Positions 3,310-55,906 are shown, counted from the stretch's first letter. The stretch is 64,000 bases of DNA from a virus (IMGVR_UViG_3300029288_000084:64001-128000); one strand, 5' to 3'. Notes: generated from the sequence alone by a model not told the origin. Numbers and translations: made by a program.

Positions 3310-4038
3310 TTAGCCACAAATAATATCGATTGGAAGCCTATGTGTATCTTGAAGCTCTTTTTCTAAAGCTTCTCTATCCTTTTCACCCTTGCTTCTAATT
3401 CCTTCAGCATTCAATGTTGACCCACCGGGTAAAGGAACCCCAGAATATTTGCACAAATTATCACCCCATTGTTCTCTAAAACAAGCGACCACATATTTTT
3501 TCAACCAATCGTTGTTATAAATATCAGGGAAATCATACGGATCATTCATTTTATAAACACGTAAAGCTAAAGTTTTTGACTCAACTGGTGCAGGAATAAA
3601 TTGAATTTGATGTGTTGTTGTATTGAAATTATAACCAGTTTCTTGACGAAATTTAATATCAATCATTTTCATCTTTTCAGCAAGTAATTCAAAACCAATC
3701 AAATCAATGTCACCAATCCATCGTCTTTCATTTAAGAATTCCCATTGAATAGAAAACGTTGGTTCGGACAATACTTCCTGAGTTACTTCAATCATATAAG
3801 GAATTGCTAAAATATCATCATCAAGGGTGTATTTATCAAGAGCTGCTGTGACTGCTAATAGTGAATATGTTAAACTTACACCTTCATCATGATATTTACA
3901 AAACATCTGAAGAGCATCATCAATTAAATCTGTTTGCTGTTCTGGCGTTATTTCAATATTTATAACACCATCACCTAGCTTACGAAGGGCATATGTTTTT
4001 AACCCTGCAAGCGTAGTTATTTTGTTAATACCCTTCAT
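3310..4038 (-). CDS. gp13: neck protein gp13-like
   Basis: LKTYALRKLG..VINIEIT.EQ..D.I..AL; WLKKY..A..REQWG.NL.KYSGVPLPGG. Confidence 0.9.
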   Translation of the reverse strand: MKGINKITTLAGLKTYALRKLGDGVINIEITPEQQTDLIDDALQMFCKYHDEGVSLTYSLLAVTAALDKYTLDDDILAIPYMIEVTQEVLSEPTFSIQWEFLNERRWIGDIDLIGFELLAEKMKMIDIKFRQETGYNFNTTTHQIQFIPAPVESKTLALRVYKMNDPYDFPDIYNNDWLKKYVVACFREQWGDNLCKYSGVPLPGGSTLNAEGIRSKGEKDREALEKELQDTHRLPIDIICG

Positions 4039-4385
4039 TATACTTTTTTAGCGTTTTTAGTTACTAAATTTTCTTTTGTACCTAATCCACTTAATGCTTC
4101 TTGTGAACCATCGATGATAGCATTTAGAATTTCTTTTGCTTTGGTAAAATCAACTGAAGCACCTAAATCTTTAGCCTTTAAAACATTTTCATTTACTTTG
4201 TTAAGACCGCTTTTAATTGTGGCATTGCAGGCAGCTACCTTGTTTTCATTCTCCCTCTTCATCTCAGGAGTTGCAGCATTTTTACCAGATTCATCACCGG
4301 TTAGGTTTCTAGGTTCACCAGTAACCTTTTGCCCCTTAATTCCCTTTTCTGTTTCTTCTTTTAAAAATTCTTTGAAGTTAATCAT
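4038..4385 (-). CDS. putative internal head protein (CTS-like leader MINFKEFLKEE)
   Basis: Leader resembles the T4 internal-protein capsid targeting sequence; charged body. Confidence 0.65.
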   Translation of the reverse strand: MINFKEFLKEETEKGIKGQKVTGEPRNLTGDESGKNAATPEMKRENENKVAACNATIKSGLNKVNENVLKAKDLGASVDFTKAKEILNAIIDGSQEALSGLGTKENLVTKNAKKV

Positions 4386-4764
4386 TTTTAATCTCCTTTA
4401 TTTTCTCTTCATATTTTTTTGTCAAACTTTTTACAAGCATTGTTTTGGATCTTTTTGGTTTATTACTGCCTTCAATCTCTTTAATTGCAATATTTAACTC
4501 ATCTGTTAATTTTGTAATCAGAGTTTCATTATTTTCTTCTAAGAGATTTGAATAATCATTTTCTTTAATAGATTCTACTTTTTCAGGAACTGTTTCTGGT
4601 ACTTGAATTACAGGTATAATTCCAGGCAGTAACTTTAACATCGTAGGAAATTTATTCTCTAGTCCATCAGGAAGATTTATATTTTTACCTACAATGATAC
4701 GATAAGACATTTTATCATCGTTTAACAACCATTCGTAACTTACTTTGTTCCAATAATTTGCCAC
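4378..4764 (-). CDS. late protein sharing its N-terminal domain with the multi-glycosyltransferase at 31616..34072
   Basis: 24/44 ungapped identities between the two N-termini. Confidence 0.7.
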   Translation of the reverse strand: MANYWNKVSYEWLLNDDKMSYRIIVGKNINLPDGLENKFPTMLKLLPGIIPVIQVPETVPEKVESIKENDYSNLLEENNETLITKLTDELNIAIKEIEGSNKPKRSKTMLVKSLTKKYEEKIKEIKND

Positions 4765-4765
4765 A

Positions 4766-4993
4766 TTACCCCCTAAAATCGATATTTAGATCACCAAAAA
4801 ATTTTTTGAAACTATTTATAATCTCGCCATTTTTCATTCCGCCACAACGAAAATAGTCAGTAGTAAAATTGATAGAAACTCCTCCTTTATCCCTTTTAAT
4901 TGCTAATCGAGCATCAGAATCTTTATCTATAGTTACCCTTTCTATTGTTGGGTCAATCACACCTTCTTTTAACAACTCACTAAACTTTTCCAT
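4766..4993 (-). CDS. putative internal head protein (MEKFSELLKE)
   Basis: CTS-like leader, AGGAG SD, TATAAATA upstream. Confidence 0.65.
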   Translation of the reverse strand: MEKFSELLKEGVIDPTIERVTIDKDSDARLAIKRDKGGVSINFTTDYFRCGGMKNGEIINSFKKFFGDLNIDFRG

Positions 4994-5009
4994 TTATTTC
5001 TCCTTAATG

Positions 5010-5017
5010 TATTTATA
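5010..5017 (-). promoter_or_regulatory. T4-type late promoter TATAAATA
   Basis: Intergenic exact match; others at 7206, 10396, 16912, 23878, 37528, 46974, 54412, 59856, 62633. Confidence 0.75.
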
Positions 5018-5022
5018 AAACC

Positions 5023-5565
5023 TTATGTTGGTTCAACAGTTAAATCAAAACTATCAAATGAAAAAGAACAGTCACATGTTAAAATATCAGATCCAGCTTT
5101 AACTGAAAAGGATATTCCGCCAATAGAAACAGGGAAACAATCTATAAATCTAAAAACAACCTGATCATTTTTCTTATTAGTCAAAATATGAAGCTCACAA
5201 TCAGATTTTACCGAATTTACAAATGTGCTTATTTTTTCCATCTGTTGTTGTGCTGATAATTGCATAACGTCTGGAAGTACTTGTAATTCTTTTGTATATA
5301 ACATCCACTTATACAATTGTCTGTAATTTGATAATGTTTCATCTATTATGAATGTTACCCGGAGATCAGAAAATGATAAAGAGGATCCAATGTGTTTAAA
5401 TTCATAAAACGGTGTATGAATTCCAAATTTTCCAATTGATATATCAGGTGTTCCTACGTCTACAATAGAATAAGAAACCTCAGGGAATTTTTCAATTACA
5501 AAATAATGATTTTGCCCCGATAATTGGGCATTTAGATTTGAAGAAGAATTAATTAATTGACTCAT
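5023..5565 (-). CDS. gp3: tail completion / tube terminator gp3-like
   Basis: Tube-fold pattern: FSDLRVTFIIDE.L.NY..LY.WM, LHILTN, F.DCFPVSIGGISF. Confidence 0.8.
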   Translation of the reverse strand: MSQLINSSSNLNAQLSGQNHYFVIEKFPEVSYSIVDVGTPDISIGKFGIHTPFYEFKHIGSSLSFSDLRVTFIIDETLSNYRQLYKWMLYTKELQVLPDVMQLSAQQQMEKISTFVNSVKSDCELHILTNKKNDQVVFRFIDCFPVSIGGISFSVKAGSDILTCDCSFSFDSFDLTVEPT

Positions 5566-7190
5566 ACTTCTTCATCTTTTGGTTGAGGTTCTTTTTTCTT
5601 TGGTGGAACGGAATCCTCTTTTTTGGGTGGAAATTGACCACTTCCTCCAGAACTGCCACCAGCTCCCTCATTACCCAAATCAGGATTCAAAGCTGCCTCT
5701 TCTTTTGCTTTTTCTTCTCGGACTTTTTTACATTCTTCCTTTTTCTTCTTCCATTCTTCTTCTGTGTATTTCAAAATCTTGATTGCTATATCATCATCTG
5801 TGTAGTAAACGCCAACAAAATCTCTCATCTTGCTAGCAAGATCGAGTCTATTGTTAAGCATTTCAGATTCTTTAATTTCTTCATAGTAATTATCATTTGT
5901 GTAAATATAACGGAATTTTTTCTTTATTTTGTCTAAAGTTTCTTTCGTTAATTTACCTTTAAATAGTAATTGTCTGTAAAGAAGTTCTGTAAATAAGGTT
6001 GAAAATTGTTTTCGAAGTTTATTTATGAACTTCATAAACTTAACTTCATCTCTCTCAATTTGGGTACTTCTTCCACTATCAAAGAGTGCCTTTTCCTTTG
6101 TTTCACGTCTTGACTCAGGTACTTTTAATGCTTTGTAAACCTTCAATACAAAGTAATAAAGATCATCTAATTCCCCAAGATTTGATCCACCTGCTAATGT
6201 TGAAATCGAAGATCCTTGGCCGTTGGTACTTTTACCAACGTAAAAATCCTCAATCATAGCCATTGTATTTTTTGTATTTGTAACTTGGCCAGTAGCAGAA
6301 TCATAAACAATTCTGTTTTGGAATTTGTGAATCAGACTCTTAATGTATTCTTCTGCTTTGGGTTTTGATAAATTGCCAGTATCAATTGAAAATACTCTTT
6401 TTTCAGGTGCTCTTACAATTCGATAAATTACAATAGCATCTTCTATCAATCTTAAGTTGTTTATTGCCTTTAAAGCTTTGTGTAGATATGAGACTTCAAG
6501 TCCAGTAACTCTATCAGTTCTAGCACTGCCAATATGAACAACTAGATCAGGTGAAACTTTCCATCTTAATTGTTTTTGTGGATCTGTGTAAATCCAATAT
6601 GTTTCTTTTTCTTTGATCTTAAATTCTTGTCTATCCTTTTGCTCTAATATCTTTTTAACATTTAATGGATCGAGTCTGTTTATTTTTAGAATGCCATTAC
6701 TTGTATTTTTTTTGCCAACTACTACTTCTAAATCTAATCTCCCATCTATATACCAAGTTTCAAAGTAATCTTGACCTTTTTGATTGAAAGATAAAAGATC
6801 TAAAATATTATCAAATTCTTCTTCTATTTCTTTTTTGATAGTATCAGCTAAATCTTTTTTGTCAATTCCAGATAAGTCAAGTTTAACTGAAACATCTTCA
6901 GAATCATTTATTACAGACTCATTTACAATTTCATCAATTGCTTCACCAACCTCTGGATAATTTGAAATTAATCTCCACGTACGTGTGTATGATTCCAATT
7001 GTTGTGAATTTTTTTCAACGGTAGCATCTGCTGATGTATTATATTCAAATGTAATCTGATACATTCCACCAGGCAGTTCATTTGAAAATTCAGTTGTCTG
7101 GCTTCTTTCAATTTCAGTTGTTGGTTTATCAACAAAAATTTCTTTAGCAGGTGCTACACTCTTGCCCAACCAATCTTCTAGTAAATTCAT
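5562..7190 (-). CDS. gp20: portal protein
   Basis: WYIDGR, SYLHKALK..NNLRLIEDAIVIYRIVRAPEKRVF.IDTGNL, RDEVKF.KFI..LR. Confidence 0.97.
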   Translation of the reverse strand: MNLLEDWLGKSVAPAKEIFVDKPTTEIERSQTTEFSNELPGGMYQITFEYNTSADATVEKNSQQLESYTRTWRLISNYPEVGEAIDEIVNESVINDSEDVSVKLDLSGIDKKDLADTIKKEIEEEFDNILDLLSFNQKGQDYFETWYIDGRLDLEVVVGKKNTSNGILKINRLDPLNVKKILEQKDRQEFKIKEKETYWIYTDPQKQLRWKVSPDLVVHIGSARTDRVTGLEVSYLHKALKAINNLRLIEDAIVIYRIVRAPEKRVFSIDTGNLSKPKAEEYIKSLIHKFQNRIVYDSATGQVTNTKNTMAMIEDFYVGKSTNGQGSSISTLAGGSNLGELDDLYYFVLKVYKALKVPESRRETKEKALFDSGRSTQIERDEVKFMKFINKLRKQFSTLFTELLYRQLLFKGKLTKETLDKIKKKFRYIYTNDNYYEEIKESEMLNNRLDLASKMRDFVGVYYTDDDIAIKILKYTEEEWKKKKEECKKVREEKAKEEAALNPDLGNEGAGGSSGGSGQFPPKKEDSVPPKKKEPQPKDEEV

Positions 7191-7205
7191 ATTTTCTCCA
7201 CTACA

Positions 7206-7213
7206 TATTTATA
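7206..7213 (-). promoter_or_regulatory. late promoter TATAAATA
   Basis: Immediately upstream of portal SD. Confidence 0.75.
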
Positions 7214-7218
7214 AGACA

Positions 7219-7875
7219 TTAAATTCTTTTCCTTGTAAATTTTTTCTTAGCTTCATTTTTTAATTTTCTAACCCTTTCTTTTTCTAACCTAATACTTTTT
7301 TGTATATTAGATTCTCGTTTAGGTGGTTGAATTCGATTTTTAACACGATGAAGAGATTGTAATTGATATTTCGTATCCTCGTAGGCCGTTTGAGCAGTAG
7401 CATCAATCCATTGTGCTCCTTCTGTTGTCATAGCATTGTACCATTCACGCCAATGTAATTCTACAAGATTGGATTTTATTCTTGATCTAATATATTTTCG
7501 GATAATTACCATGCCCTCTCTATACCATAAATTTGCTGCGTTCTTAATTTCATAATATGGTACGTGAGCTGGCAATTCTTTTTTGAGTAATTTGTAATTT
7601 TTAAGGATAATTTTCTTGATAAAATATTCTCTAGTTAATCTAGGAAGATAATGAAATGCTAAACCTAAAATATATTTTGAATCTACAGAAAGAACTAAAA
7701 TAATAGGAAAGGCATCATAGTATGCTAATTTACCTTCTTCATACATCTTACTATCATAATTGAAAAAATATATTTTTCCGGGGATGATATTTTTTGATCG
7801 ACCAGTTCTTAAGTTTTTTTCAGTGTATTTTTTCCAAAAATTTCTTTGTGCCTGCGTTATATTCAAATATGCCAT
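7219..7875 (-). CDS. gp2: DNA end protector protein
   Basis: PGKIYFFNYD.K...L.YYD.FP, GL.FHYLP motifs. Confidence 0.88.
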   Translation of the reverse strand: MAYLNITQAQRNFWKKYTEKNLRTGRSKNIIPGKIYFFNYDSKMYEEGKLAYYDAFPIILVLSVDSKYILGLAFHYLPRLTREYFIKKIILKNYKLLKKELPAHVPYYEIKNAANLWYREGMVIIRKYIRSRIKSNLVELHWREWYNAMTTEGAQWIDATAQTAYEDTKYQLQSLHRVKNRIQPPKRESNIQKSIRLEKERVRKLKNEAKKKFTRKRI

Positions 7876-10379
7876 TATGTGATTCCGTTATTGTTGTTTT
7901 TTCTCGTATATGGATCATCTAAATAAAAGCGATAATCAGGTTGTTGAATTACATTTGTTTGTGATATAATAGTTGGGCTTGCCTGTTGTTGATTTGGTTT
8001 TGTTGGTGTGGGGGTTGGGATATCTGTTACTGAAGCTAAAGTTGGTTGTGGCTTCCTAGCATTCTGTACATGCCAAGGTTCATTTTTTACTGGAGTATCT
8101 AAACCGGCCGATTCCATAAGTCCTAATCTCTTTGCTGTATTGATTTGTCGACTTTGTGCATCAAATGCTTTTGCTCCCTCGCCTCTATCTACGTGAGGAG
8201 ATCTATCTGGGGATGCAGCAAATTTATTTACTTTCTTTAACGCAGCTTGTTCAGCATATGTTCTAGCACCCGAATTTACTTGTAATTTTTCACCCGTTTC
8301 TTCTTTGTAATCAGTAGAAAGTTGAGCAAGATTTCCTTTAAGTCTGGGTTCTAAATTTTGAATATCAACATTTGGATTAGCTAGTGTTACATTATCTAAA
8401 GAAGTAGGAGATTCAGTAGCAGATGGGAGAATTATATTTTCGGTAGGTGCTTGAGGCATAGGTAAAGAAGGTGCATTTGCTTTGGGTATAGTTGGCATTG
8501 TAATAGATGCTTGCACTTGAGGAATTCCGCTTCTTTTCACTACTAAAAATTTCAACCACTTGTCTTGAAGATTCTTACCAGCTCGTCCAGTTCTAACTTT
8601 AGAGATCAGTCCATTTACTTGATCTTGTCTATTTTCATAATCAATATCTTTTGACAAACTTTCTTCTTGAGATCTTGTTATACCGTTTTGTTTTGCAAAT
8701 TCATTCCACAATCTTTGTCGTTCAGCAGATTTAGCTTTATTAACTCCTGTTGAGCCAACAATAGAAGCCATTTCTTGATCTTCAACACCCTGTTGCTTTT
8801 TCCATAAATGATTTAGAGTTAATCCCAAAGCCGCAATTGGTGCACCAAGAACTAAACCACCCCCAATACCAGCAGCTACGCCACCAACACCTGCATAACC
8901 AGAACCTGCTGCTGTAGCTGATGGTAACATTCCTTTTCCAAGATTTTTTCCTAATCCTAAAACTTTACTTAGTAAACTAGCCTTTCCAACTGTATCTAAA
9001 AGAGATGATCCCTTGCCTTCTTTATCAAGTGCAGCCTTTCTTTTACCAATACCTTGACTTTCCATGTAAGATTCAACATAATCGTGAATATCCATCAACC
9101 AAAAATCCCTATCTTCTACCTTGCGTTCTGAATAAACTCCATCCCAATTTTTTTTATAATCAACAAAATTATCCTTAAAATCTTCAACTAGTTTGTAAAA
9201 TTCTCCACCAGGGAGTAATGTACTAAAGAAATTTGACATAGCTTCTTCTTCGACAGGACTCATTTCTGTTGATGGCATTACAGAAGCAGTATAAAGAGGT
9301 CTTTCACCTCTAGCTGCTCCAAAATCTTCTGGCAATCCCAAACTTCCAGATTCTAATCCAAGTTCATCTTCTACACCAGCAGAGCTTGCCCTAATATCTT
9401 CCATCAAGGACTTTTCAAATTCGTCAGGTTCTTCAGCAGGTTCAACAACAGCTCGCTTTCTGTTTACAGATTCTATAAAGTTCTTTCTTCCTTCGGGGCT
9501 TTTTAATTCGCCAACTTTTTGCTCCATTTCAGTTAAAATAGGAGCCCATTTCTTTGGGTCATCTTTATTTTGTTCAAGGCGAAGAGTATATTCATTTTCC
9601 AATCTTTGTATTTCTTCATCTACTAACTGAGTTTTTGCTTTTTCAGATAATTTTTCAATCTTCTTTTTTTGATCGGGTTTTAATTTTTGACTTGATTTTT
9701 TTAACATCTCTGTATCAAATTCGTCCCCAACCTGATCTTTTGTTTTTCCTGAATACTTCTTTTTCTTTTCACTATAATATCTTTCTTTAGATTGATCATA
9801 TAATTTATCTTTCATTATACCTTGCATCAATTCTTTTTGTTGTAGAATTCTATGGGATTTAGCTTCTTCTTTCTGTTCCTTTCTTGCTTGTAACCACTGA
9901 GCTCCAATTATTAATGCAGGAGAATCAATTAAGACACCAGCTACACTAGCCATTGTAGCATATTTTCTTGACCCAGTAAATTGCTTTTTAATTTTACCTT
10001 TTACTGTTTGTTCAGGTGTTATAAGTTTTCCTGATTTTTTCTTTATTACACCTTTTCTTTGTTTAAATTCTTTCAATGCATTTGTATTCATAACAGTCAA
10101 CATATCATTTAGACTTTTGTATTCAACGTTTGTTAGTTGACCATTTGTATTTAATGCAGTAATTACTTTTCTGATATTTCGAATTGATTCCAAATTTTCT
10201 TGTGCATCTTCAGCTGTATTTGAAAGTATAATAGAATCAGCTAAATCATTCATTGAATCGGCAAGCGCGTATGCACCAGAAGAAAAATCATCTGGGTCTA
10301 CACGTTTTTTAGAAATGAGATTGAGTTTATTCCTCATTGATTTTTCAAATTCAGCTAATTTATTATTTTTATTGATCAT
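7875..10379 (-). CDS. tape measure / baseplate hub-like protein with C-terminal M15-type peptidase domain
   Basis: Long helical and Gly/Ala-rich protein after gp26/51; NSGART.AEQ..L, SPH, AFD, EPWH motifs. Confidence 0.7.
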   Translation of the reverse strand: MINKNNKLAEFEKSMRNKLNLISKKRVDPDDFSSGAYALADSMNDLADSIILSNTAEDAQENLESIRNIRKVITALNTNGQLTNVEYKSLNDMLTVMNTNALKEFKQRKGVIKKKSGKLITPEQTVKGKIKKQFTGSRKYATMASVAGVLIDSPALIIGAQWLQARKEQKEEAKSHRILQQKELMQGIMKDKLYDQSKERYYSEKKKKYSGKTKDQVGDEFDTEMLKKSSQKLKPDQKKKIEKLSEKAKTQLVDEEIQRLENEYTLRLEQNKDDPKKWAPILTEMEQKVGELKSPEGRKNFIESVNRKRAVVEPAEEPDEFEKSLMEDIRASSAGVEDELGLESGSLGLPEDFGAARGERPLYTASVMPSTEMSPVEEEAMSNFFSTLLPGGEFYKLVEDFKDNFVDYKKNWDGVYSERKVEDRDFWLMDIHDYVESYMESQGIGKRKAALDKEGKGSSLLDTVGKASLLSKVLGLGKNLGKGMLPSATAAGSGYAGVGGVAAGIGGGLVLGAPIAALGLTLNHLWKKQQGVEDQEMASIVGSTGVNKAKSAERQRLWNEFAKQNGITRSQEESLSKDIDYENRQDQVNGLISKVRTGRAGKNLQDKWLKFLVVKRSGIPQVQASITMPTIPKANAPSLPMPQAPTENIILPSATESPTSLDNVTLANPNVDIQNLEPRLKGNLAQLSTDYKEETGEKLQVNSGARTYAEQAALKKVNKFAASPDRSPHVDRGEGAKAFDAQSRQINTAKRLGLMESAGLDTPVKNEPWHVQNARKPQPTLASVTDIPTPTPTKPNQQQASPTIISQTNVIQQPDYRFYLDDPYTRKNNNNGIT

Positions 10380-45809: not shown

Positions 45810-45824
45810 TTTATTTCTCCTTTA

Positions 45825-47149: not shown

Positions 47150-47151
47150 AT

Positions 47152-47376
47152 TTAACCCTCATTACCTAATGATTCATGAATATTTCTTTTATCCCTTAAT
47201 TTGTTTCTCTCTGCATCTAATTTTTTAATTTTTTCATTATGATCTGTAGAACATTTATTTTCTGGTATAGAAAATAATTTATCGATTTCTTGACCAATTG
47301 TAAATAATCTTTTATCAATTTCTTTATTTCTTTTTTGTCGTGTTTCATTATCTTCAAACAAGTTTTTTACTTTCAT
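47152..47376 (-). CDS. putative internal head protein (MKVKNLFED)
   Basis: Shared leader. Confidence 0.62.
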   Translation of the reverse strand: MKVKNLFEDNETRQKRNKEIDKRLFTIGQEIDKLFSIPENKCSTDHNEKIKKLDAERNKLRDKRNIHESLGNEG

Positions 47377-47696
47377 GCTCTCTTTCTCCTTTCTTCTTGG
47401 CCATCTCTTTGAACATGTAATTTGCGTCTGGCAATAATAGCCTTTCTAGTTTCATCATCATCTTTATCACCATTTCTGAAGCTAACTTTGTCAGATGCTC
47501 TCATCATTTTCAAACTGTTCAATTTTGTTTTTATAGTTTGCATTTTCTGTAATATTCTTGCTCTATTAGAAGAATCAGCGGTTTGATATTCTGATTTTAC
47601 TTGAGCAAGTTCTTGTTCAAACTCTTTCCGTTTTTTATCGAGTTCATCTTGTGTCATTTCTTGTAAAACCTCTTCAAATAATTTTTTTATTTTCAT
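47373..47696 (-). CDS. putative internal head protein (MKIKKLFEEVLQE)
   Basis: Shared leader. Confidence 0.62.
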   Translation of the reverse strand: MKIKKLFEEVLQEMTQDELDKKRKEFEQELAQVKSEYQTADSSNRARILQKMQTIKTKLNSLKMMRASDKVSFRNGDKDDDETRKAIIARRKLHVQRDGQEERRKRA

Positions 47697-47716
47697 TTAA
47701 TCCATCCTTTATTTTT

Positions 47717-47989
47717 TCATTTATTGTAAAGATTTTCTGCATTAATTTTATTTACACCCTTTTCGATAATACTATTTACAAATTCTTTGTTATTAGTTGT
47801 ATTATCTTTTCCTCGAGTTGTAACTAAATCATAAGCCTCTTTACTAGCTACATTATTATTTATTCCTATTTTTTTTAATTCTTGCCAAATATCATAATGA
47901 ATTGCTAATGCAGATCTAGTTCTTCGATCTGTAGTTTTATAATTTCTTTGATTTGCTGCAAGAGCTTCAAATAAATTCTTTACTTTCAT
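47717..47989 (-). CDS. putative internal head protein (MKVKNLFEA)
   Basis: Shared leader, AGGAG SD. Confidence 0.62.
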   Translation of the reverse strand: MKVKNLFEALAANQRNYKTTDRRTRSALAIHYDIWQELKKIGINNNVASKEAYDLVTTRGKDNTTNNKEFVNSIIEKGVNKINAENLYNK

Positions 47990-47998
47990 CCTATCTCC

Positions 47999-50900
47999 TT
48001 ATTTAGCTCTAGCAATCATTCTGTAATTCATCGCGACAGGTGATTTCCAATAGCTTGTGCTCTCAAGTAATAATCTTCCTGTAAAGTTTGTAAACCAGGT
48101 TGGTTCTGAAGTGTAATCGTAAACAACTGAAATTGCTGTGCTTGTTGTATTGCTTTCCAATGTATCAGATACAGTAAATCTTGCAACAGCATCACTATTT
48201 AACATTACATATACGTAATTGTTTAGAGTATCTATAGCAACAATTTTTGCTGTAGTTGCAGAATATGGATCAGGACTAACATCATCACCAACTGCAAACC
48301 CTGTTTCATCAGTAACAGTTAAACGTTGCAGTAAATCTAAATTGAATTCATATGTTTTGCGATAAAATCCATTTTCAAGGTCAGTGCTTTCAATCGCATC
48401 ATGAACCAATCTGAACCAGAGTGTAGTATCAGCTAATGGACTGAATTCTTTGATGATGTTTGTTCCGCTAGCTAAGTATTCGTCTAAAATGATCTTCATA
48501 TTGTTGTAAGCTGGAGCATCTTCAACAACCTTTGTTCTATACTGACCAGTTTGTGATACATCGTATTTGAAAAATACTAACGCAGTGTCAATATTGACCA
48601 TTGGAGTTGTTTTACCATTTCCAGTTAATACACCCTTGAATTGTATTTTTGTGCTAGCAGCACCAGTATCAATCTCATCACCCGGATTAAATACTGTCCA
48701 AGTAGTACCACTATCTAGTGAATAGAAATATTCGATTTGTGAATAAGGCATTTCTGAGAAAGTGTTTTTGAATATGAATCTTCCAAATCCAGCCCAAGCT
48801 GGTTTTGCAGGATCAGGATCAGTTATTGGAGCTGCAATTTCTTCAGTTATGAAAGATCCGCTTGTTTCGAAATTGCCCTCGTATAGCTTGATTGTCATAT
48901 CAAGATCTTGTGCAGGAGACCATGTTAAGCCATTTGAACTTGTGAATAAAACTCCATCTTGATAAGCTTGCTTCATGACAACGCTTCCAGAGTCAAGATC
49001 TGTTTGACCAAGCTTTGCAACAAAGACTGTATATTCAGTTGATTTTGAACCAATTGAAATGTAAAACTCTTGCATTGCTGGAATGAAAACTGGTTTTTGA
49101 AGAGTGATTTTTGTTTCAACAGTTCCATAAAGAGAGGTTGTAATCTCACTTGGATAAATCTCTTGCATATGAATGATGTTTTTGGAATCAGGTAAACCAT
49201 TGACCATATAACCAATTGTTAAGATAGCTGGTAATTCAGGAGCAAATGCATTATAGTTGTAATAATCATCTTGTACCATTGGCTTTGCTTCAGCATCTGC
49301 TTTTGTTCCAAAGTAAAACCCTAAAGCTGTAAGCAAGTGATCAGCAGCAAATATGAAGGATTGTGCAAGAGGATCGTGAGTAACATCTCCACTTTCTGCT
49401 TGCCATTCTTTTCCTATTCTGGCTGCACCTCCACCGCTTCCGCCATCCCCCGATTCATCAACAACACCTGTTGCTACTTGAGCTTTTAAAATCTCAAATA
49501 CGTCGATAGTTTGTTCATATGTTTTTGTGATAATGGTCTTATTTTCAATTACTCTATTAATTCCTTTTGCTTTGTAAATAACGGAGATTTCATTGTCATA
49601 CTCATCTGTTAGTTTAAGTTGAATATTTCCACATTCAACCCCAGCTGGGATATAGAATTTAGCATGCCAAGAACCATCAGCAGCAATTATGATCTTTGCA
49701 GCATTTACACCAGTGCCTTGCATATAAGGACTCTCTGCAATCAAAGTTACAGCTTGTCCACCAAATGTAGCACCAAGAATGCCTGCTGGTTCGAAACTAT
49801 ATCCTTTTATGTCAACCCATTTTTGTCTAGCATAAGTAACAAGACGATCTTTCACACTTGCATTGCCTTGAGATATGTTAGATCCGATTTGATTTCTACT
49901 CTCTTTTTGTAAAACTGTATCATTTGTAGGAGCTGAAACCCATTGTAACTGATGATTGTTAATCGTAGTTCTTATGATCTCATCTTCAATGACAGTTACT
50001 TCGGTTACAGTTTCATCTATCCATTCATCAATAGCTGGATTCATCGTAGCATATGGTAGATTTTTTATGTAGCCATGAGGATTCAGGTTCATCAAATCTG
50101 TCTTTAAGATATTTTCAAAAAATGCTGTATCTGAAAGCCATTTTAAAGTAATCAGTTTATCATAGCCTTCTTTGTCAGCATATTTTGTAATGTTGGTTTC
50201 TGTATCTGAATCTCTTTCTAAACCAAAAGCCAAATTTAAAGATACAATGTACAATTCACCATCCATCAAGTTCATCGATGCATAAAAATCAGTATGAGTA
50301 GCATCCGCCTTGTAGAAAGTATTGAAAGGATCTACTAAAATGCCTTTTAATGTTGTAGCTAGTTCACCTTCTTTGGCTTCACCTTCTAAGGCCAGTGCAG
50401 CTACATTTTCCTCTAAGTCATCTACGCGTTTCTTTAACTGATGCAATTCAAACATTGTTGTGCGTTCATAACGATATTCGTAGATGATTGCACTGCCATA
50501 ATCTAGTCCAGGCATAAACTTAATCCAGCCTAGTGGCAGTAACTCTTCATTGTAAGGTGGAATAACTGTTTTACTGTAAAGAGTTGGTGTACCTGTTTTA
50601 ACTACAATTTTTCCAAATTTATCAATTGCAAATAAATCTGTTCTTGCTTTGTAGACTGAATAATTAACAAGAACATTTGTTCCAACAGCAGGATCATCAC
50701 CACCAAGACCCCATGTAATTTGGTAAACGTTACCATCTGTTTCAGTTGGATCTGCTTCAATTTTGAAATCAGTATCTCGAACAGCATTTTTGTAATATCT
50801 GAATGAAACTGTATAATCAGTTCTGATTGAGGGTCTGTTGCCAACCCAATGAATTTGATCGGCAGCTAAAACATAATCAGTTGTTTCAATATATCCAGGA

Positions 50901-51916
50901 ATACTAACAATGCTTTCGATGCTTGAAAATACTAATCCGTAAGGATCTTCAAATGTATCATAATCACCAGAACCTCTTGTGATAGAAACAGTTTCAGCCA
51001 CAACTGCTGTTACAGTAATAAGTTCTACAGTAGGATCGATGACAACAAATGGGTGAAATAATTGGTAGCTTACTTCATAAGCATCAAAAGCATGAGGTTC
51101 GAGGGTATATTGTTCAGTTGTTAACGCTTTGTCAACTTCTATTGTTCTTGGTACAATGTAAGTATTGTCATACCCTTTTACATAACAAATACCAGGTGTT
51201 ACAGCTACTTTTATTTTACCAGTTGTTGTAGATGCTTCAGCTTTTAAACGCATCCCTTCTACTAGATAATTTCCAGATTCGTCATATGTTCTTTTTGCCA
51301 TAACATCTGCTAGAAGTGAATAACCAGGTTTACGTAAGAAATTTTGAACTACCCCATCTATCAGATTCCATATAGTAACAACATTTTCTTCATCAGCATA
51401 TTTGGATGTTGCAGGAAGTGTTGGTCTTGTTCCAACTGGTACATCTACGATTTTGACAAGTTTGACTTCAATCATCAAACGATGTGCACCATCCAAATTG
51501 TAGTTGCTATATCCTGAAGCAGGATCTGTTAAAGTTGGGTCTTCAGAATAAGTAACAAAAGTTTCTTCTATGTAAAAACCAATATTTTCAGTTCCTACTC
51601 CTAGTATTTCAAGTTCTTGTGCTTCTACTTCTAATACTCTTCCTTCAAAGTAAAATTTACCTTCTGGAAGATTAGCTGTTGCAGCTCCATATGGATCATT
51701 TAAAGCAATTGCAAGATTGCACCCGTCAGTAACAGAACCATTCTTAAACATTGAATTCCAGTTGAGAGTGTGTTGTTCATGTAAAAGGGTTTGTGTTTCT
51801 GTTAGTTCACGAGCTTGAGGAGCTTTGCCAGGTACAAATAGAACATTCTTATACTTTTTTGCTGCCTGATCAAGATGAGTGCTGTAATATGGAAAAATGT
51901 TAAGCGATCGCGCCAT
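47999..51916 (-). CDS. DUF4815 / VrlC-like large virion protein
   Basis: LNIFPYY, VLF.PG...QARELTE.Q, GAHR, A.RTYDESGNY, G..YVKG, DPLAQSF, D.DM. Confidence 0.88.
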   Translation of the reverse strand: MARSLNIFPYYSTHLDQAAKKYKNVLFVPGKAPQARELTETQTLLHEQHTLNWNSMFKNGSVTDGCNLAIALNDPYGAATANLPEGKFYFEGRVLEVEAQELEILGVGTENIGFYIEETFVTYSEDPTLTDPASGYSNYNLDGAHRLMIEVKLVKIVDVPVGTRPTLPATSKYADEENVVTIWNLIDGVVQNFLRKPGYSLLADVMAKRTYDESGNYLVEGMRLKAEASTTTGKIKVAVTPGICYVKGYDNTYIVPRTIEVDKALTTEQYTLEPHAFDAYEVSYQLFHPFVVIDPTVELITVTAVVAETVSITRGSGDYDTFEDPYGLVFSSIESIVSIPGYIETTDYVLAADQIHWVGNRPSIRTDYTVSFRYYKNAVRDTDFKIEADPTETDGNVYQITWGLGGDDPAVGTNVLVNYSVYKARTDLFAIDKFGKIVVKTGTPTLYSKTVIPPYNEELLPLGWIKFMPGLDYGSAIIYEYRYERTTMFELHQLKKRVDDLEENVAALALEGEAKEGELATTLKGILVDPFNTFYKADATHTDFYASMNLMDGELYIVSLNLAFGLERDSDTETNITKYADKEGYDKLITLKWLSDTAFFENILKTDLMNLNPHGYIKNLPYATMNPAIDEWIDETVTEVTVIEDEIIRTTINNHQLQWVSAPTNDTVLQKESRNQIGSNISQGNASVKDRLVTYARQKWVDIKGYSFEPAGILGATFGGQAVTLIAESPYMQGTGVNAAKIIIAADGSWHAKFYIPAGVECGNIQLKLTDEYDNEISVIYKAKGINRVIENKTIITKTYEQTIDVFEILKAQVATGVVDESGDGGSGGGAARIGKEWQAESGDVTHDPLAQSFIFAADHLLTALGFYFGTKADAEAKPMVQDDYYNYNAFAPELPAILTIGYMVNGLPDSKNIIHMQEIYPSEITTSLYGTVETKITLQKPVFIPAMQEFYISIGSKSTEYTVFVAKLGQTDLDSGSVVMKQAYQDGVLFTSSNGLTWSPAQDLDMTIKLYEGNFETSGSFITEEIAAPITDPDPAKPAWAGFGRFIFKNTFSEMPYSQIEYFYSLDSGTTWTVFNPGDEIDTGAASTKIQFKGVLTGNGKTTPMVNIDTALVFFKYDVSQTGQYRTKVVEDAPAYNNMKIILDEYLASGTNIIKEFSPLADTTLWFRLVHDAIESTDLENGFYRKTYEFNLDLLQRLTVTDETGFAVGDDVSPDPYSATTAKIVAIDTLNNYVYVMLNSDAVARFTVSDTLESNTTSTAISVVYDYTSEPTWFTNFTGRLLLESTSYWKSPVAMNYRMIARAK

Positions 51917-52160
51917 TATTTACTCCTTCTTTTGTTTTTGATACTTCAGGTTTTATTTTTTTCTTTTGCATGACTAAATCTCTTATTTTTTTGTTTAATT
52001 CTTCTATTTGCTTCATATAAGTTGTAATTGATTCTAAGCTTTTACCACTGTTATATGCACTGAGATATTTAGCGCGTAGATCATTCACTTCATCTCTAAG
52101 GTTATTGAGTTGATTATCTATATATTGTAGAGGTTCTTCAAATAAAATTTTAACTTTCAT
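51900..52160 (-). CDS. putative internal head protein (MKVKILFEE)
   Basis: Shared leader. Confidence 0.62.
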   Translation of the reverse strand: MKVKILFEEPLQYIDNQLNNLRDEVNDLRAKYLSAYNSGKSLESITTYMKQIEELNKKIRDLVMQKKKIKPEVSKTKEGVNNGAIA

Positions 52161-52166
52161 ATTCCT

Positions 52167-53069
52167 TTAGGTAGCATCTACCATTTCCTTCCATTTAGCT
52201 TTTTCATCTAAAATATCTTGTATACGTTTAAAATATCCCATTTTTTCAATATACTTGTAAATTAAGTTGTTGATTGAATTATTTAAATTATCCTTAACAA
52301 TAATCTGAGACGAGATTTCTAATGTTGAATCTTTTTCTAAAGATTCAGCTCTTAATGATTTCAGTAGATGTTTAGCAATGTAAATACTGTCAATATCAGC
52401 TAAAATTTCTTGTAATTTTAAACTTAGCAATTTTTGATAATCTTCTTGTTCTTTTTCAGATATCTTTTTACCATATTCCAAATAACTTGCATAAGCAGCT
52501 TTATCAGAATAAAATTCAGCCATAACAATATCTAATCCAGAAGTGAAAAATCTTGCAATTTCCATTGATGTTTTATAATTACGAATAACCATCTGATTAT
52601 CTTCTTTTTCAGCAGTAGAAATCCATTTATCTTCTAATACATCATAAATACCGCCCTCTTTTTTCCATTCTTCTTTGAATTTAGGACTGACATAGTAATT
52701 AACAGGATGTTCTGTTCCTGGTAATGGTTTTTCATTTAATTCAATATTAATTGGTTTACGAAGTATATTTTTCATCTCATCTTCTGGCATATCAATAACA
52801 AAATTAACATCAATATCAGAATCTTTTGTATATTGAAACCCCGTCATTGAACCTAAAATAAAAACATTTTTGTATGTTTTATCAGTCTTAGTTTTCAACC
52901 AAGCATCTAATTTATCAATGATATATTTTTTTGCTGACTTGAGTAATTTGTTGTTGCTATCCCAAAGTTCAGAACACATTTCATCTTGTAGTGGATCAAG
53001 AACACTTTCAGTAATCTGATTTTTTGTTTCATTTAACATTTCACTGAGAATGGAATTTATTTTACTCAT
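52167..53069 (-). CDS. nucleotidyltransferase (pol beta fold) with CTS-like N-terminus
   Basis: GS.....YT.DSDIDV; HPVNYYV; GIYDV...W. Confidence 0.8.
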   Translation of the reverse strand: MSKINSILSEMLNETKNQITESVLDPLQDEMCSELWDSNNKLLKSAKKYIIDKLDAWLKTKTDKTYKNVFILGSMTGFQYTKDSDIDVNFVIDMPEDEMKNILRKPINIELNEKPLPGTEHPVNYYVSPKFKEEWKKEGGIYDVLEDKWISTAEKEDNQMVIRNYKTSMEIARFFTSGLDIVMAEFYSDKAAYASYLEYGKKISEKEQEDYQKLLSLKLQEILADIDSIYIAKHLLKSLRAESLEKDSTLEISSQIIVKDNLNNSINNLIYKYIEKMGYFKRIQDILDEKAKWKEMVDAT

Positions 53070-53075
53070 TTTGAA

Positions 53076-53285
53076 TTATACTTTTTTATTTTCTTTTACA
53101 ATTTCTTTTTTGAACACTTCAACATCAGGGTGATTTTTAATATATTTTTTAAGTTCATTTTCATCATTAAATGTTCTACTAAATTTTGTAAGTTGTTGAA
53201 TTTTCTTTCTATCAGCTGATTGTATCTTATAATATCTTTGACCTGTGACTTTAATTTTATCTTCAAATAAAATTTTTACTTTCAT
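53076..53285 (-). CDS. putative internal head protein (MKVKILFED)
   Basis: Shared leader, AGGAG SD. Confidence 0.62.
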   Translation of the reverse strand: MKVKILFEDKIKVTGQRYYKIQSADRKKIQQLTKFSRTFNDENELKKYIKNHPDVEVFKKEIVKENKKV

Positions 53286-53294
53286 TTTATTCTC

Positions 53295-53825
53295 CTAAAA
53301 ATTCAAAATGATTTCGAACTTTTCACTTTGACTCGGATCTCTTGTAACATATGTGTGATTGTTGATGTAAAGAACTTCACCTTGATCAATTACATTAGCA
53401 CCTAGATACTCAACAGCTGTTAATAACACACCGCCAGCTCCTTCTGGATTCAGAAGAATTCCAGTTTGTCTAAATGTTGTATTTATTGGAGCAATATCAG
53501 AATAGTAAATAGTATTTGAAAAATATACTGATCTTGCATTTTCGTTAAAAGCATCTACATCAGCAACGAAGTGATAATCATATCCACCAACTTGGACATC
53601 TGGTCCATAAACATCATATGGATCATCATCAATGACCATATGTTTAACTGAAATTTTCTTAATGTAGATGAGTTCAGTTAAAGTCAAATCTGTAGCGAGT
53701 GGTGTAGGTGGGTTTAATTCATCTGCCCATACAGACGTTCTGCCAATTGCAAGATAGAGATTGACTTCTTGTTTTGTTGCTAATGCATTTAAAACCCTTT
53801 GTTTATCGGTGAAGATTGACGCCAT
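53295..53825 (-). CDS. baseplate wedge protein (gp8-like, short form)
   Basis: YLAIGR...W.DE.NPP.P, FRQ.GI..NP, GE.LYINN, R...Q.E...I...F. Confidence 0.75.
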   Translation of the reverse strand: MASIFTDKQRVLNALATKQEVNLYLAIGRTSVWADELNPPTPLATDLTLTELIYIKKISVKHMVIDDDPYDVYGPDVQVGGYDYHFVADVDAFNENARSVYFSNTIYYSDIAPINTTFRQTGILLNPEGAGGVLLTAVEYLGANVIDQGEVLYINNHTYVTRDPSQSEKFEIILNF

Positions 53826-53840
53826 GTTTTACTTCCTTTA

Positions 53841-53984
53841 TTAATCGGCCCACTTAAAGGGCCGTTTTTTCTTTTTCGACTTCAACATTTTTCCGAACAA
53901 TTTTGCTTTCTTTTCATCTTCTTTTCTCTTTTTATCATCATCTTTTTTATTTTCACTTTCTTCAAACAATTCTTTTACTTTCAT
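53841..53984 (-). CDS. putative internal head protein (MKVKELFEE, 47 aa, not in track)
   Basis: Hand translation; GAGGAG SD. Confidence 0.6.
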   Translation of the reverse strand: MKVKELFEESENKKDDDKKRKEDEKKAKLFGKMLKSKKKKRPFKWAD

Positions 53985-54151
53985 TTCTTATTCTCCTCTT
54001 GATGAATGTGAAATTTTATTTCATTGATTTCATTCTGTCTTTCTCCCCAAGGATCGCCATCTTTGGAGATCTTTTTCTTAATCTCTTCAATCTGAGATTT
54101 ATATCTTTTAATTCGTTCCATATCAGTTTCAAATAAATTGCCCACTTTCAT
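53981..54151 (-). CDS. putative internal head protein (MKVGNLFET, 56 aa, not in track)
   Basis: Hand translation; ATGA overlaps on both sides. Confidence 0.6.
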   Translation of the reverse strand: MKVGNLFETDMERIKRYKSQIEEIKKKISKDGDPWGERQNEINEIKFHIHQEENKK

Positions 54152-54393
54152 TTCTTGTTATAGAATGCCTTTGCATCAGCCAATGATAATTTTGGATTTA
54201 ATTTCATCATCTTCTTTATCTTCTCATCTTTTTCTTCATCTGTCAAATTACCCTTTGATAGTTTATTACCACTTGTTTTGATACTTTTGACAAATTTATG
54301 AGCATCTTCATCAGATAAATTTGGATTGGCATTTTGAATCCTTCTTTGCTTTTCTGATGCTTCTTCAACTTCAAATAATTTCTTTACTTGCAT
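54148..54393 (-). CDS. putative internal head protein (MQVKKLFE) with duplicated NP.LS..DA..F motif
   Basis: Shared leader, AGGAG SD, late promoter at 54412. Confidence 0.62.
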   Translation of the reverse strand: MQVKKLFEVEEASEKQRRIQNANPNLSDEDAHKFVKSIKTSGNKLSKGNLTDEEKDEKIKKMMKLNPKLSLADAKAFYNKK

Positions 54394-54429
54394 TCTATAC
54401 TCCTTTAAAATTATTTATAAAAGCAGTTA

Positions 54430-55015
54430 TTTAATTTCCACAGGTATTACAAAGATTTTTTAATATCATCTGGATGTGGCAATCTTGGAATGGCATCTTG
54501 TAATTTTTTCAATCTTGATATTTCTTTTTCAATGCTTTTCATTCAACCCTCAATTTGATTACAAGAACCCTCTGTTCTTTTAGTTCCTAATGAACTATCT
54601 AAATGATTGTATGTATTCCATAAGCACTTTTATCATTCTTCATTACTTGGTAAGGACCTTGATTGTAATGAATTTCAGTTACAGGTTTTTTAAATTAATT
54701 TGATCCTGTTGTCTTTCAACCTAGTTTAAAACATCTTGTGTTAAAGTTCCGACAATATTTGAAATACCTTCAAAGAGTTGTTTTACTTTCACTGTGTTTT
54801 TTTATCCATTCTTGACATTTTACTTTTGAACTACCACTAAATACAATAAAATCTTTCCAATTATCAACTCGATATTCTCCAGATGAATCTTTGTAATGTT
54901 TAAATGCATCTGTCTTTAATACATAATAGGTATTGCCAATTTCTAATCATCTTCCTTGTGCATCATGATATATTTTATATTTTTTGATATCTTCAAATAA
55001 TTGTTTTACTTTCAT
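54430..55015 (-). pseudogene. two decayed MKVKQLFE-leader ORFs (starts 55015 and 54792)
   Basis: In-frame TGA at codon 23 and TAG at codon 24, then further stops and frameshifts. Confidence 0.65.
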
Positions 55016-55033
55016 TTTAACCTCGTTTTATTT

Positions 55034-55906
55034 TTACGGTAGTAACGTTCTGTACACTGATAACTGATGATAAAAATAATCAAAATTTAAAGCTGATTGT
55101 TCCATATGATAAAATGTATCACCCCAATCTTCAAAGGTCATTTTTCCAATTCCTCTGAGGCTGCTATTTAAATCAGCAACAGTAAGAGCTGAAGCTTGAT
55201 ACACTAAGTTGTAAGTATCAAAATTTTGAAACTGGTATGCTGATATGATTTCATTTGCAAATGCTAGTGTATATGGATTTTGATCTTGAAGAGCTGGAAG
55301 CAATGTACCAATACATTCAACTATTCTCAAAAAGAAACACTTGCAACCAGCGGGGTGAAGTAAAAGTTCGATGATATCTTTTAATTCCACATATCCATAC
55401 ATTGTGGATTGAATTTCATATGTGTAGAAAGCTGAGTAGTAATTATCATGAATTTTTGAAGTTTCGTCTAGTGTGTGATTTGAATCTGATAAAAGAAAGA
55501 CGTGGTCACCAGGGTAGTAGAAACTAAAAGCTCCCATATGATTCATTAATCGGAAAATAAAATCATATGACTTTTCAGTTCCTTTTGAACTGTAAAAATC
55601 CTTCGCATTTTTGATCAGCTTTTTAACACCAATGTCTGTAATTCTATATAACGGAAAGGAATTTAGATATTGCTTGACATATTCTTCAAGAACATCTGAA
55701 TCGCTGTTATAGGGGTCATAAGCATCTTCAAGTGTATCTATATCTATGTAGTGTAAAAAATCATAGATGAGTTGAATTATCTTACCTTGTTGTTCACAGT
55801 ATTCAAGGTAACTTCTGATAAATATTTCAAATTTAGAATACGTTTCTCGTATATATGGAGTTAAGAAACGATCCATAAAAATAGAAAGAAATTTTTGATC
55901 ACTCAT
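55034..55906 (-). CDS. baseplate wedge protein (gp7-like N-terminal region)
   Basis: P.YIRE.Y..F..F...Y.EY, DID, FY.SKGTE.SY.F.FR, HPAG. Confidence 0.78.
   Translation of the reverse strand: MSDQKFLSIFMDRFLTPYIRETYSKFEIFIRSYLEYCEQQGKIIQLIYDFLHYIDIDTLEDAYDPYNSDSDVLEEYVKQYLNSFPLYRITDIGVKKLIKNAKDFYSSKGTEKSYDFIFRLMNHMGAFSFYYPGDHVFLLSDSNHTLDETSKIHDNYYSAFYTYEIQSTMYGYVELKDIIELLLHPAGCKCFFLRIVECIGTLLPALQDQNPYTLAFANEIISAYQFQNFDTYNLVYQASALTVADLNSSLRGIGKMTFEDWGDTFYHMEQSALNFDYFYHQLSVYRTLLP

Follow-up and report, generated by a model that had tools for sequence, protein, structure and literature searches.

According to Freeman et al. 2023, as cited in PMC12619734, mycobacteriophage virions are glycosylated by glycosyltransferases that the phages themselves encode. 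A second group of described enzymes joins a GT2 glycosyltransferase to TPR and includes GmaR, the O-GlcNAc transferase of Listeria flagellin, and the SunS/ThuS-type glycocin enzymes (PMC12457901, PMC6405829, PMC8620827); the known relatives of this build act on Ser, Thr or Cys, not on Tyr (PMC12457901, PMC8620827). The label 'DPY motif' is already in use for D-x4-FP-x8-Y in the translocation domain of nuclease bacteriocins (Pyocin_S; PMC5536347), which has the name alone in common with the motif considered here: the bacteriocin pattern gives 0 matches in the phage genome, and the proteins bearing the phage motif belong to phage structural families. We describe a tripeptide, D-P-Y (DPY), that occurs some seven to eight times more often than by chance in loops and tails of the particle-building proteins of a T4-like phage and its relatives.

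The window analysed is a stretch of 64,000 nucleotides from the 153-kb genome of this phage, and its DNA is present in landfill and groundwater metagenome runs. The initial annotation had listed 13 copies of DPY in the window, and all 13 were verified in coordinate, strand and frame, within long ORFs of the minus strand; they are spread over 10 different proteins. From the composition of the window proteome (20,476 aa), 1.81 copies would be expected globally and 1.80 protein by protein, close to the rough figure of about 2 given before. The excess (Poisson p 6.8e-8) ranks first among all tripeptides and survives multiple-test correction (Bonferroni about 5e-4), and none of 300 within-protein shuffles was as extreme for any tripeptide. 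Genome-wide there are 16 sites, 15 of which lie in the structural module at 67-131 kb; the module (20.8k aa) thus holds 15 copies versus 1.9 expected, and the other 28.3k aa hold 1 versus 2.0 (Fisher p 2.5e-5). We found no DPY site in the accessory enzymes of the window, as had been noticed initially, and DGY in the same genome is not enriched (3 versus 3.2 expected).

The signal is at the level of protein. Across the genome, GAYCCNTAY on the coding strand falls in frame 0 in 16 of 16 cases and never in the other two frames, and on the non-coding strand it occurs 4 times versus about 5.5 expected under a first-order model. The frame test rules out a DNA-level signal, in which GATCC words acting in methylation or restriction, or as a binding site, would merely translate as DPY, and this reading is left with next to no credence. 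GATCC is indeed found in 15 of the 16 sites, but GAT makes up 89% of Asp codons, so that GATCC at these sites is merely Asp-Pro as it is written in this genome. Neither the flanking bases nor the wider DNA around the sites is conserved, and the codons of DPY, including the varied Pro and Tyr codons from which a protein-level signal had first been proposed, match genome usage.

The sites also have common surroundings. The residue after DPY is G, S, T, D, N or A in 15 of 16 cases (p 7e-7), a bias absent after DP[^Y] and [^D]PY. Acidic residues make up 25% of the upstream positions versus 13% in the background, and basic residues 6% versus 14% near the motif, which agrees with the acidic context and small following residue first described. 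Furthermore, three unrelated proteins have in common an extended motif, D-[ILV]-D-x-L-x(0-5)-DPY; 3 of the 9 D-[ILV]-D-x-L pentapeptides in the genome lead into DPY, versus 0 of 53 in control loci. With this common context in non-homologous proteins, the DPY sites form one class. Tyrosine sulfation favours acidic, turn-rich and basic-poor surroundings, and those of DPY fit this description; a search of the genome with one sulfotransferase family, PF13469, gave no match (the record is about 85% complete).

Chance together with ascertainment has to be weighed against these figures: a tripeptide picked by eye from 8000 could have been inflated by a DP and PY bias and by inheritance within a clade. 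DPY was chosen after looking, and DP (63 versus 38 expected) and PY (48 versus 31) are both somewhat high; a first-order expectation from their counts gives 4.7 copies of DPY, against which the excess (p 1e-3) is not significant after 8000 tests. Copies in the relatives L005-L009 that are not homologous to the sites of this phage are, by our own tally, only modestly above expectation, at roughly 6 versus 3. However, DP and PY counts are inflated largely because the DPY sites are counted in both, and conditional tests in the structural region gave Y after DP in 15 of 70 cases (3.3 expected), D before PY in 15 of 48 (2.8 expected) and P within DxY in 15 of 82 (2.7 expected). The family-wise tests are passed, independent agreement comes from the flanks, the extended motif and the module contrast, and single proteins of the clade carry four or five copies where about 0.07 would be expected. 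We therefore consider chance very improbable, and this explanation already close to refuted.

The enrichment is not a general property of T4-like phages. No excess of DPY was seen in T4 or a pelagiphage (2 versus 1.8 expected in T4, 2 versus 3.2 in Mosig), in 80 T4-like metagenome loci (223,000 aa; 14 versus 21.4), or among distant homologues, namely 92 of DUF4815 (18 versus 16.2) and 128 representatives of the gp7 family (14 versus 13.5). In contrast, gp7-like proteins of the lineage contain 24 copies versus 1.5 expected and its gp15 proteins 9 versus 0.4, counts that are not independent across relatives as many sites are shared by descent. By these sequence comparisons, the motif is specific to one clade of T4-like phages, all of them uncultured.

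Among the carriers are capsid, neck, sheath stabiliser, baseplate wedge, giant DUF4815 tail protein and small terminase; all genes and sites given below are on the minus strand. PHROG or Pfam matches uphold the initial names gp13, gp23, gp16, gp15, DUF4815, gp8-like and gp7-like, but 'tape measure' and 'holin candidate' are left without family support. The gp13-like head-tail adaptor (gene 3310-4038) has DPY at residue 166 (3535-3543), where Mosig (DPE) and T4 (DPN) have the D-P in common and, among those sampled, only this phage has the Tyr. The former 'tape measure', an 834-aa protein (7875-10379) for which Pfam gives no family and PHROG just one weak hit, has DPY near its C-terminus at residue 822 of 834 (7908-7916), a site covered by no relative in the comparison. 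In the gp23-like major capsid protein (gene 12574-13926), DPY at residue 171 (13408-13416) is retained in the relatives L001 and L003 (73-83% identity), and Mosig and T4 lack it at the corresponding position. DPY occupies residues 161-163 of the 164 of the small terminase, gp16 (site 23377-23385, gene 23371-23865), and lies in an acidic C-terminal tail, ...EEQDEDPYG, that is missing in the homologues of L005, T4 and Mosig. The tail sheath stabiliser gp15 (gene 24076-24897) carries two copies. At residue 32 (24796-24804), 7 of 9 lineage homologues have DPY and one has DAY, and T4 and Mosig differ; at residue 230 (24202-24210), which follows DIDDL of the extended motif, 4 of 9 lineage homologues have DPY in the aligned column of A3 and 3 have DAY or NAY, and gp15 of L005 has a DPY of its own (residue 227) about 10 columns downstream. 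The former 'holin candidate', a 142-aa protein (26175-26603) without a family in Pfam or PHROG, has DPY at residue 51 (26445-26453), which is not kept in the sole homologue found (L006).

On the tail side, a 272-aa protein (gene 45825-46643), whose homologues follow the DUF4815 gene in relatives, has DPY at residue 34 (46536-46544); L005 has D-E-Y-G there, other relatives differ, and the homologue in L009 has DPY elsewhere. The 1305-aa DUF4815 tail protein (gene 47999-51916) has three copies. The one at residue 74 (51689-51697), in a loop of variable length, is also present in P0004, P0009 and the close relative L013; P0005 has DGY, and the remaining relatives have other residues or a shorter loop. 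The copy at residue 324 (50939-50947) lies in a well-conserved block where relatives have D-[AVILM]-Y-G, so that the Pro alone is specific to this phage, and the one at residue 1216 (48263-48271), in a variable loop, is found in this phage only, among about 16 lineage homologues. In the gp8-like baseplate protein (family BW3TFN; gene 53295-53825), DPY at residue 68 (53616-53624) recurs in L009 and L013, L005 has SPY, and in L006 and L007 the loop is deleted. Finally, the gp7-like baseplate wedge protein (gene 55034-55906) has DPY at residue 64 (55709-55717), in an inserted acidic loop after DIDTL, and 18 of 25 homologues, down to 43% identity, keep it despite varying loop length. The wider gp7 family has no loop at this place, and its helix runs on as DIDxTLDEF; relative to that family the loop is an insertion, and it holds little besides the motif and acidic residues.

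Comparison of relatives suggests that these sites are maintained. Indel-rich loops retain DPY in the gp7-like, gp15 and gp8-like proteins, as does DUF4815 site 74, down to 43-76% identity, and new sites appear in P0131, P0159, P0136 and P0137, as judged from alignments. Of the five copies in the gp7-like protein of P0131, four are new; two loops of P0159 carry tandem DPYDPY, which L005 has as well, and a form DPYDPYSPY is seen in the clade. Loss is all-or-none in pattern, and Phe replaces the Tyr in 1 of 48 Y/F cells versus 14% in the remaining Tyr columns of those alignments; some sites keep D and Y with a varying middle residue (DUF4815 site 324, and DAY in gp15). What is kept or re-invented in this way is probably read by something. 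DPY, in most cases with a small residue after it and with Lys and Arg scarce in its acidic surroundings, is very probably a real short linear motif that is selected at the protein level. The initial inference of a protein-level motif under selection in lineage-specific loops has held on the strength of the enrichment, the flat controls, the context, the retention and gains, and the gp7-like insertion. The particular functions first offered for it, namely Tyr O-glycosylation, metal binding or docking, are conjectural.

The main rival is that DPY acts in cis, where an Asx-Pro turn or helix N-cap with a Tyr and a small residue stiffens loops and nothing reads it. D-P is a common starter of turns and caps in proteins, and T4 and Mosig already have it at the gp13 site. 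All three modelled sites lie between secondary-structure elements in low-confidence AF2 models: gp15 residue 32 in the turn of an N-terminal beta-hairpin (strands 27-30 and 40-43), gp15 residue 230 in a loop between strands 215-221 and 234-242, and the gp7-like site in a loop at 61-68 between helices, with residues 64-66 before a helix starting at 69. The two models (mean pLDDT 52 and 58, under 50 at or next to each site) give a 'loop' assignment at these 3 sites, not solvent exposure. The residue that follows, Gly or a small polar one, is of the kind that tight turns and capping boxes have, gp15 and gp7 sites show either P or A in the middle, and a structural D..Y pair fits the conserved D-x-Y-G at DUF4815 site 324 equally well. 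A turn, however, leaves unexplained both the restriction to one clade, with five control sets flat, and the lack of DPY in the enzymes that this genome encodes. A turn is also difficult to recognize in tandem DPYDPY or DPYDPYSPY, the terminase site is at the extreme C-terminus, the gp7 loop occurs solely as a motif-bearing insertion, and Tyr almost never becomes Phe. We thus regard an action purely in cis as possible but doubtful.

The reading that we prefer is that a factor made during infection would recognize DPY in trans, a proposal to which we give slightly less than an even chance. Proteins that build or fill the particle would present the motif on variable loops, on inserted loops and on terminal tails, each DPY loop being a small tag, not a part of the fold; the tandem copies and the site in the C-terminal tail suit such a tag better than they suit an element of the fold. 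A surface-coat function cannot cover all the sites, for the small terminase does not belong to the virion and the 834-aa protein, should it be a tape measure as first suggested, would lie inside the tail. Covalent modification centred on the Tyr hydroxyl is the mechanism that we judge most likely, and the non-covalent docking of an assembly or decoration partner common to these proteins would be nearly as likely. The sequons that other viral structural proteins carry offer an analogy, by which the phage's own glycosyltransferases would be the leading candidate modifiers; that DPY is specifically a glycosylation site we consider an uncertain and rather unlikely guess. In its full form, the proposal that an undescribed system encoded by the phage modifies tyrosine (O-glycosylation being most plausible) on many particle proteins before assembly, with acidic-D-P-Y-small as its recognition site, is speculative and may well not hold.

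Candidate readers are encoded in the genome. A block of glycan genes on the minus strand (29017-34072; Pfam), inside the structural module, specifies a DUF707 protein, a methyltransferase and an 818-aa GT2 plus GT9-like protein; it is conserved beside the neck and gp15 genes in L014, the single close relative sampled at this locus, and is joined there by dTDP-sugar genes. A second candidate, identified by sequence match, is a 308-aa GT2-TPR protein glycosyltransferase (62648-63574, minus strand), whose best matches among solved structures are GmaR (E 2e-24) and SunS (E 2e-17). It was found in none of the relative loci compared, which are partial contigs only, and is missing at the syntenic place in L013, a close relative that retains DPY. 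Its neighbours offer other plausible substrates, namely a collagen-like fibre protein and a Cys-rich 75-aa peptide.

DPY can be set beside the known systems as follows. The Asx-Pro turn or helix N-cap (Pro at N1) occurs universally and needs no Tyr; like DPY it places Asp-Pro at the start of a loop or helix and a small or capping residue two positions on, but it shows no excess in control phages and no tandem occurrence. Three-residue sequons are represented by N-x-S/T and by the Bacteroidota O-glycosylation motif D-S/T-[AILVMT]. DPY resembles them as a short ordered motif that includes Asp, is scattered over unrelated proteins of the same class, and is gained and lost as sequons are in exposed regions; however, sequon systems have Asn, Ser or Thr as acceptors and work outside the cytoplasm, and the sole hydroxy-amino acid of DPY is Tyr. 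Glycocin enzymes modify a residue in a loop adjoining a helix, and the gp7-like DPY loop resembles such an acceptor loop. The enzyme at 62648-63574 has the same GT2-plus-TPR build as GmaR and the SunS/ThuS-type enzymes (comparison structures PDB 22ao, 7msp and 7msk). As in mycobacteriophages, insofar as they are presented in PMC12619734, glycosyltransferase genes lie among structural genes, particle proteins are the proposed targets, and attachment of the sugar would take place in the cytoplasm, either ahead of assembly or in its course. The mycobacteriophage glycans are placed by that account at the C-termini of capsid and tail tube subunits, with no three-residue tag on several proteins described in it, whereas the present system is known from sequence alone and its proposed acceptor is Tyr.

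The initial annotation had counted 13 Asp-Pro-Tyr (DPY) tripeptides in the window, mostly in particle-building proteins, where about two would be expected by chance. Six-frame translation returned exactly these 13 sites, position for position, all on the minus strand and in frame with a long ORF, and the composition of the window proteome (104 non-overlapping ORFs, 20,476 aa) gave a chance expectation of 1.81. The excess (Poisson p 6.8e-8) ranked first among all tripeptides, with a Bonferroni value over 8000 tripeptides of ~5e-4; indeed, none of 300 within-protein shuffles reached the observed p for any tripeptide (lowest p 1.5e-7). The first-order expectation from DP and PY counts, which include the DPY sites themselves, was 4.7 (p 1e-3). 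In the structural region DP was followed by Y in 15 of 70 cases (3.3 expected), PY was preceded by D in 15 of 48 (2.8 expected), and DxY had P in the middle in 15 of 82 (2.7 expected). No related tripeptide in the structural module was comparable, whether DPF (4 versus 1.8 expected), DPW (1 versus 0.6), NPY (4 versus 2.1), YPD (2 versus 1.9), DGY (3 versus 3.2) or DAY (3 versus 3.1). Genome-wide there are 16 DPY sites against 3.8 expected, 15 of which, including two in tail proteins just past the right end of the window, lie within 67-131 kb, while the remaining 28,250 aa contain one (Fisher p 2.5e-5). Outside the window (positions 1-64000 and 128001-152932 of the whole record) CPF is strongly over-represented (9 versus 0.8 expected), as are the collagen-type tripeptides PTG, TGP and GPT; a collagen-like 234-aa protein (record positions 128476-129180) carries one DPY immediately before its Gly-x-Thr repeats.

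The signal resides in the protein, as had been proposed. GAYCCNTAY on the coding strand is in frame 0 in all 16 cases, and occurs on the other strand 4 times against ~5.5 expected. Since GAT makes up 89% of the Asp codons in the genome, GATCC merely spells Asp-Pro here; Pro and Tyr codons at the DPY sites match genome usage, and the neighbouring bases are unconserved. A DNA-level cause was thus rejected on the frame test and codon usage, and such causes, together with chance, are close to excluded.

The record (152,932 bp, linear, 30.5% G+C, ~85% complete by CheckV, with nearly all genes on the minus strand), whose bases 64001-128000 make up the window, belongs to a T4-like but distant myophage. 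No deposited phage has a major capsid protein more than 37% identical to its own (top match, cyanophage S-SKS1), gp15 (gene 24076-24897) shows ~35% identity to proteins from cyanophages and Pelagibacter phages, and the giant DUF4815 tail protein (1305 aa, gene 47999-51916) is 27% identical to SPO1-type proteins. Near-identical DNA is present in landfill and groundwater metagenome runs; there were no RNA runs among the sequencing runs listed with the window's DNA. The large terminase is apparently split into two minus-strand ORFs, one for the N-terminal ATPase (22695-23378) and the other, with a weak intein-splicing match, for the nuclease (20377-21816); between them lies a 298-aa ORF (21797-22693, minus strand) with weak endonuclease-like matches (DUF559, REase). 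A 404-aa ORF (56322-57536, minus strand) flanked by the gp6-like and gp7-like genes of the baseplate, with no counterpart there in the related locus L013, has a NUMOD3 match (E 6e-4; 20.1 bits, just below the Pfam cut-off of 20.4) and is possibly homing-endonuclease-like.

DPY is not generally abundant in T4-like structural proteins, a possibility ruled out by five control sets: Pelagibacter phage Mosig (100 kb; 2 versus 3.2 expected), the T4 structural region (2 versus 1.8), 92 distant DUF4815 homologues (183,000 aa; 18 versus 16.2), 80 T4-like metagenome loci retrieved through gp15 (223,506 aa; 14 versus 21.4) and 128 distant gp7-family representatives (97,000 aa; 14 versus 13.5). That all five lie near expectation indicates that the composition-based expectation is realistic and the excess clade-specific. 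In the DUF4815 family [NST]-P-Y is high as well (152 versus 64 in the distant homologues), chiefly through a small number of conserved columns, SPY near residue 729 being one.

The DPY sites share a context beyond the tripeptide. The next residue, described in the initial annotation as often G, S or D, is G, S, T, D, N or A at 15 of the 16 sites (background 0.33, p 7e-7), and no such bias was found at DP[^Y], [^D]PY or D[^P]Y. The acidic surroundings reported there are likewise borne out, with 25% acidic residues in the eight upstream positions against a background of 13% (p 2e-4); basic residues (Lys and Arg) up to eight positions from DPY amount to 6% versus 14% (p 1e-4). In AlphaFold2 models, whose low confidence (mean pLDDT 52 for the gp7-like protein and 58 for gp15) limits their use to loop assignment, all three modelled sites are predicted to lie in segments that link secondary-structure elements, and pLDDT is below 50 at each site or beside it. 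Moreover, D-[ILV]-D-x-L is followed by DPY at most five residues on in three unrelated proteins: gp15 (C-terminal part), the gp7-like protein (gene 55034-55906; N-terminal part) and a tail protein of 491 aa (genome 129188-130663). These are three of just nine such pentapeptides in the genome; in the control loci DPY follows none of the 53. The small residue after the motif would suit a purely structural turn acting in cis, which needs no reader.

Relatives, found by database searches, form a clade at 45-75% identity (loci L005-L009, L013 and L014); counts from them share ancestry and are hence not independent, and a further locus, L096, is ~92% identical to L005 and so is a strain of it rather than independent. 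Scanning viral contigs for the DUF4815 protein yielded no relatives. Of 25 homologues, with identities as low as 43%, 18 have DPY at the gp7-like site, within a loop that varies in length and sequence and holds hardly anything but acidic residues and the motif. In the wider gp7 family there is no loop at this place and the helix continues as DIDxTLDEF, so the loop is a clade-specific insertion. Seven of nine gp15 homologues have DPY at site 32, and closer relatives retain it at the gp8-like and capsid sites and at DUF4815 site 74. Only this phage has DPY at DUF4815 site 1216, in the terminase tail and in an insertion of the 491-aa protein; only relatives have it at about DUF4815 residue 388, in a neck protein and in a homologue of a 272-aa protein. 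The gp7-like protein P0131 of a relative, at 56% identity, carries five DPY, of which four are new and lie in variable loops (~0.07 expected per protein), another (P0159) has DPYDPY(SPY) in two loops, and L005 has DPYDPY. In the clade alignments the motif is lost by deletion or by substitution with unrelated residues, and Phe takes the place of its Tyr in 1 of 48 Y/F cells, compared with 14% at other Tyr columns.

Some columns are consistent with the structural turn. The aligned column of gp15 site 230 has DPY in four of nine homologues and DAY or NAY in three, and at DUF4815 site 324 Pro is private to this phage, the relatives having D-[AVILM]-Y-G; D-x-Y thus persists at some sites around a variable middle residue, Pro alternates with Ala, and D-P at the gp13 site is ancient. 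The turn, however, accounts poorly for tandem copies, for a copy in an acidic tail at a C-terminus, for an inserted loop with little else in it, for all-or-none loss with almost no Phe, and for an extended context common to unrelated proteins and a motif missing from the genome's enzymes, and we consider it rather unlikely. The same observations favour DPY as a motif read in trans, which we advance tentatively, at close to even odds: the loops would be tags that another factor either modifies or docks on, the two variants sharing this likelihood about equally.

Candidate readers that would modify such tags are encoded nearby. The structural module contains a glycan block (29017-34072, minus strand) that encodes a methyltransferase, a DUF707 protein and an 818-aa polypeptide combining two GT2 regions with one that is GT9-like. 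In L014 the block (59-62% identity) adjoins neck and gp15 genes and gains, at 5143-7510, genes for an RmlC-like dTDP-sugar isomerase and two epimerases/reductases, the whole lying between lysis and neck genes; this combination implies a phage-made methylated deoxy-sugar glycan. A 308-aa GT2-plus-TPR protein (62648-63574, minus strand) matches GmaR (E 2e-24), SunS (E 2e-17) and a ThuS-like enzyme, and by this resemblance to protein and peptide glycosyltransferases may be a DPY reader, as a candidate only. The related glycocin enzymes yield glycopeptides whose sugar is O- or S-linked (PMC12457901, PMC6405829, PMC8620827). Two genes away are those for a Cys-rich 75-aa peptide (61676-61903) and a P-loop protein (60781-61698), and judging from sequence the stretch 60781-63574 (minus strand) resembles a unit for peptide glycosylation of the glycocin type, placed within the baseplate cluster. 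Encoded beside the enzyme, the Cys-rich peptide and a collagen-like fibre protein are other plausible substrates. All three genes are missing from the corresponding place in the close relative L013, though L013 retains its DPY sites. A predicted complex of the enzyme with the gp7-like DPY loop (residues 25-105) scored 0.00, which gives no verdict. The genome has no family matches to prolyl hydroxylase (PF13640) or sulfotransferase (PF13469).

Two further features of the clade stand apart. Small ORFs beginning M-K-V-K-x-L-F-E (strict pattern) number 15 in the genome (window 45033-59459 and elsewhere), two in L013 and four in L014, with none in T4, Mosig, the 80 control loci or the sampled parts of L005-L009; as the last of these bear DPY, leader and motif are not coextensive, and a tie between them was rejected. 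On the 123.5-kb contig of another related phage (protein P0008) a Cas12f1/TnpB-like gene (PF07282) lies a few genes past the DUF4815 gene.

No account of phage proteins with a contiguous DPY motif turned up in literature searches, in line with the initial annotation; a bacteriocin 'DPY motif' is a different, non-contiguous pattern, not present in this genome and unrelated. If only structural, DPY would still be an unusual, clade-specific loop idiom with repeated invention. If read, it would be a virus-wide tag of particle proteins, invisible to family searches, and a direct handle on how particles of uncultured phages are coated, assembled or disguised. Because motif, carriers and candidate enzymes are all named, the claim is testable with a few recombinant proteins. 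Simple but properly controlled tripeptide statistics can expose functional marks in viral dark matter. Tyr-directed modification by phage enzymes, if true, would be new chemistry for phage virions. Mycobacteriophage virions are glycosylated by phage enzymes (Freeman et al. 2023, cited in PMC12619734), and the glycans, according to the same citing account, are located at the C-termini of capsid and tail tube proteins.
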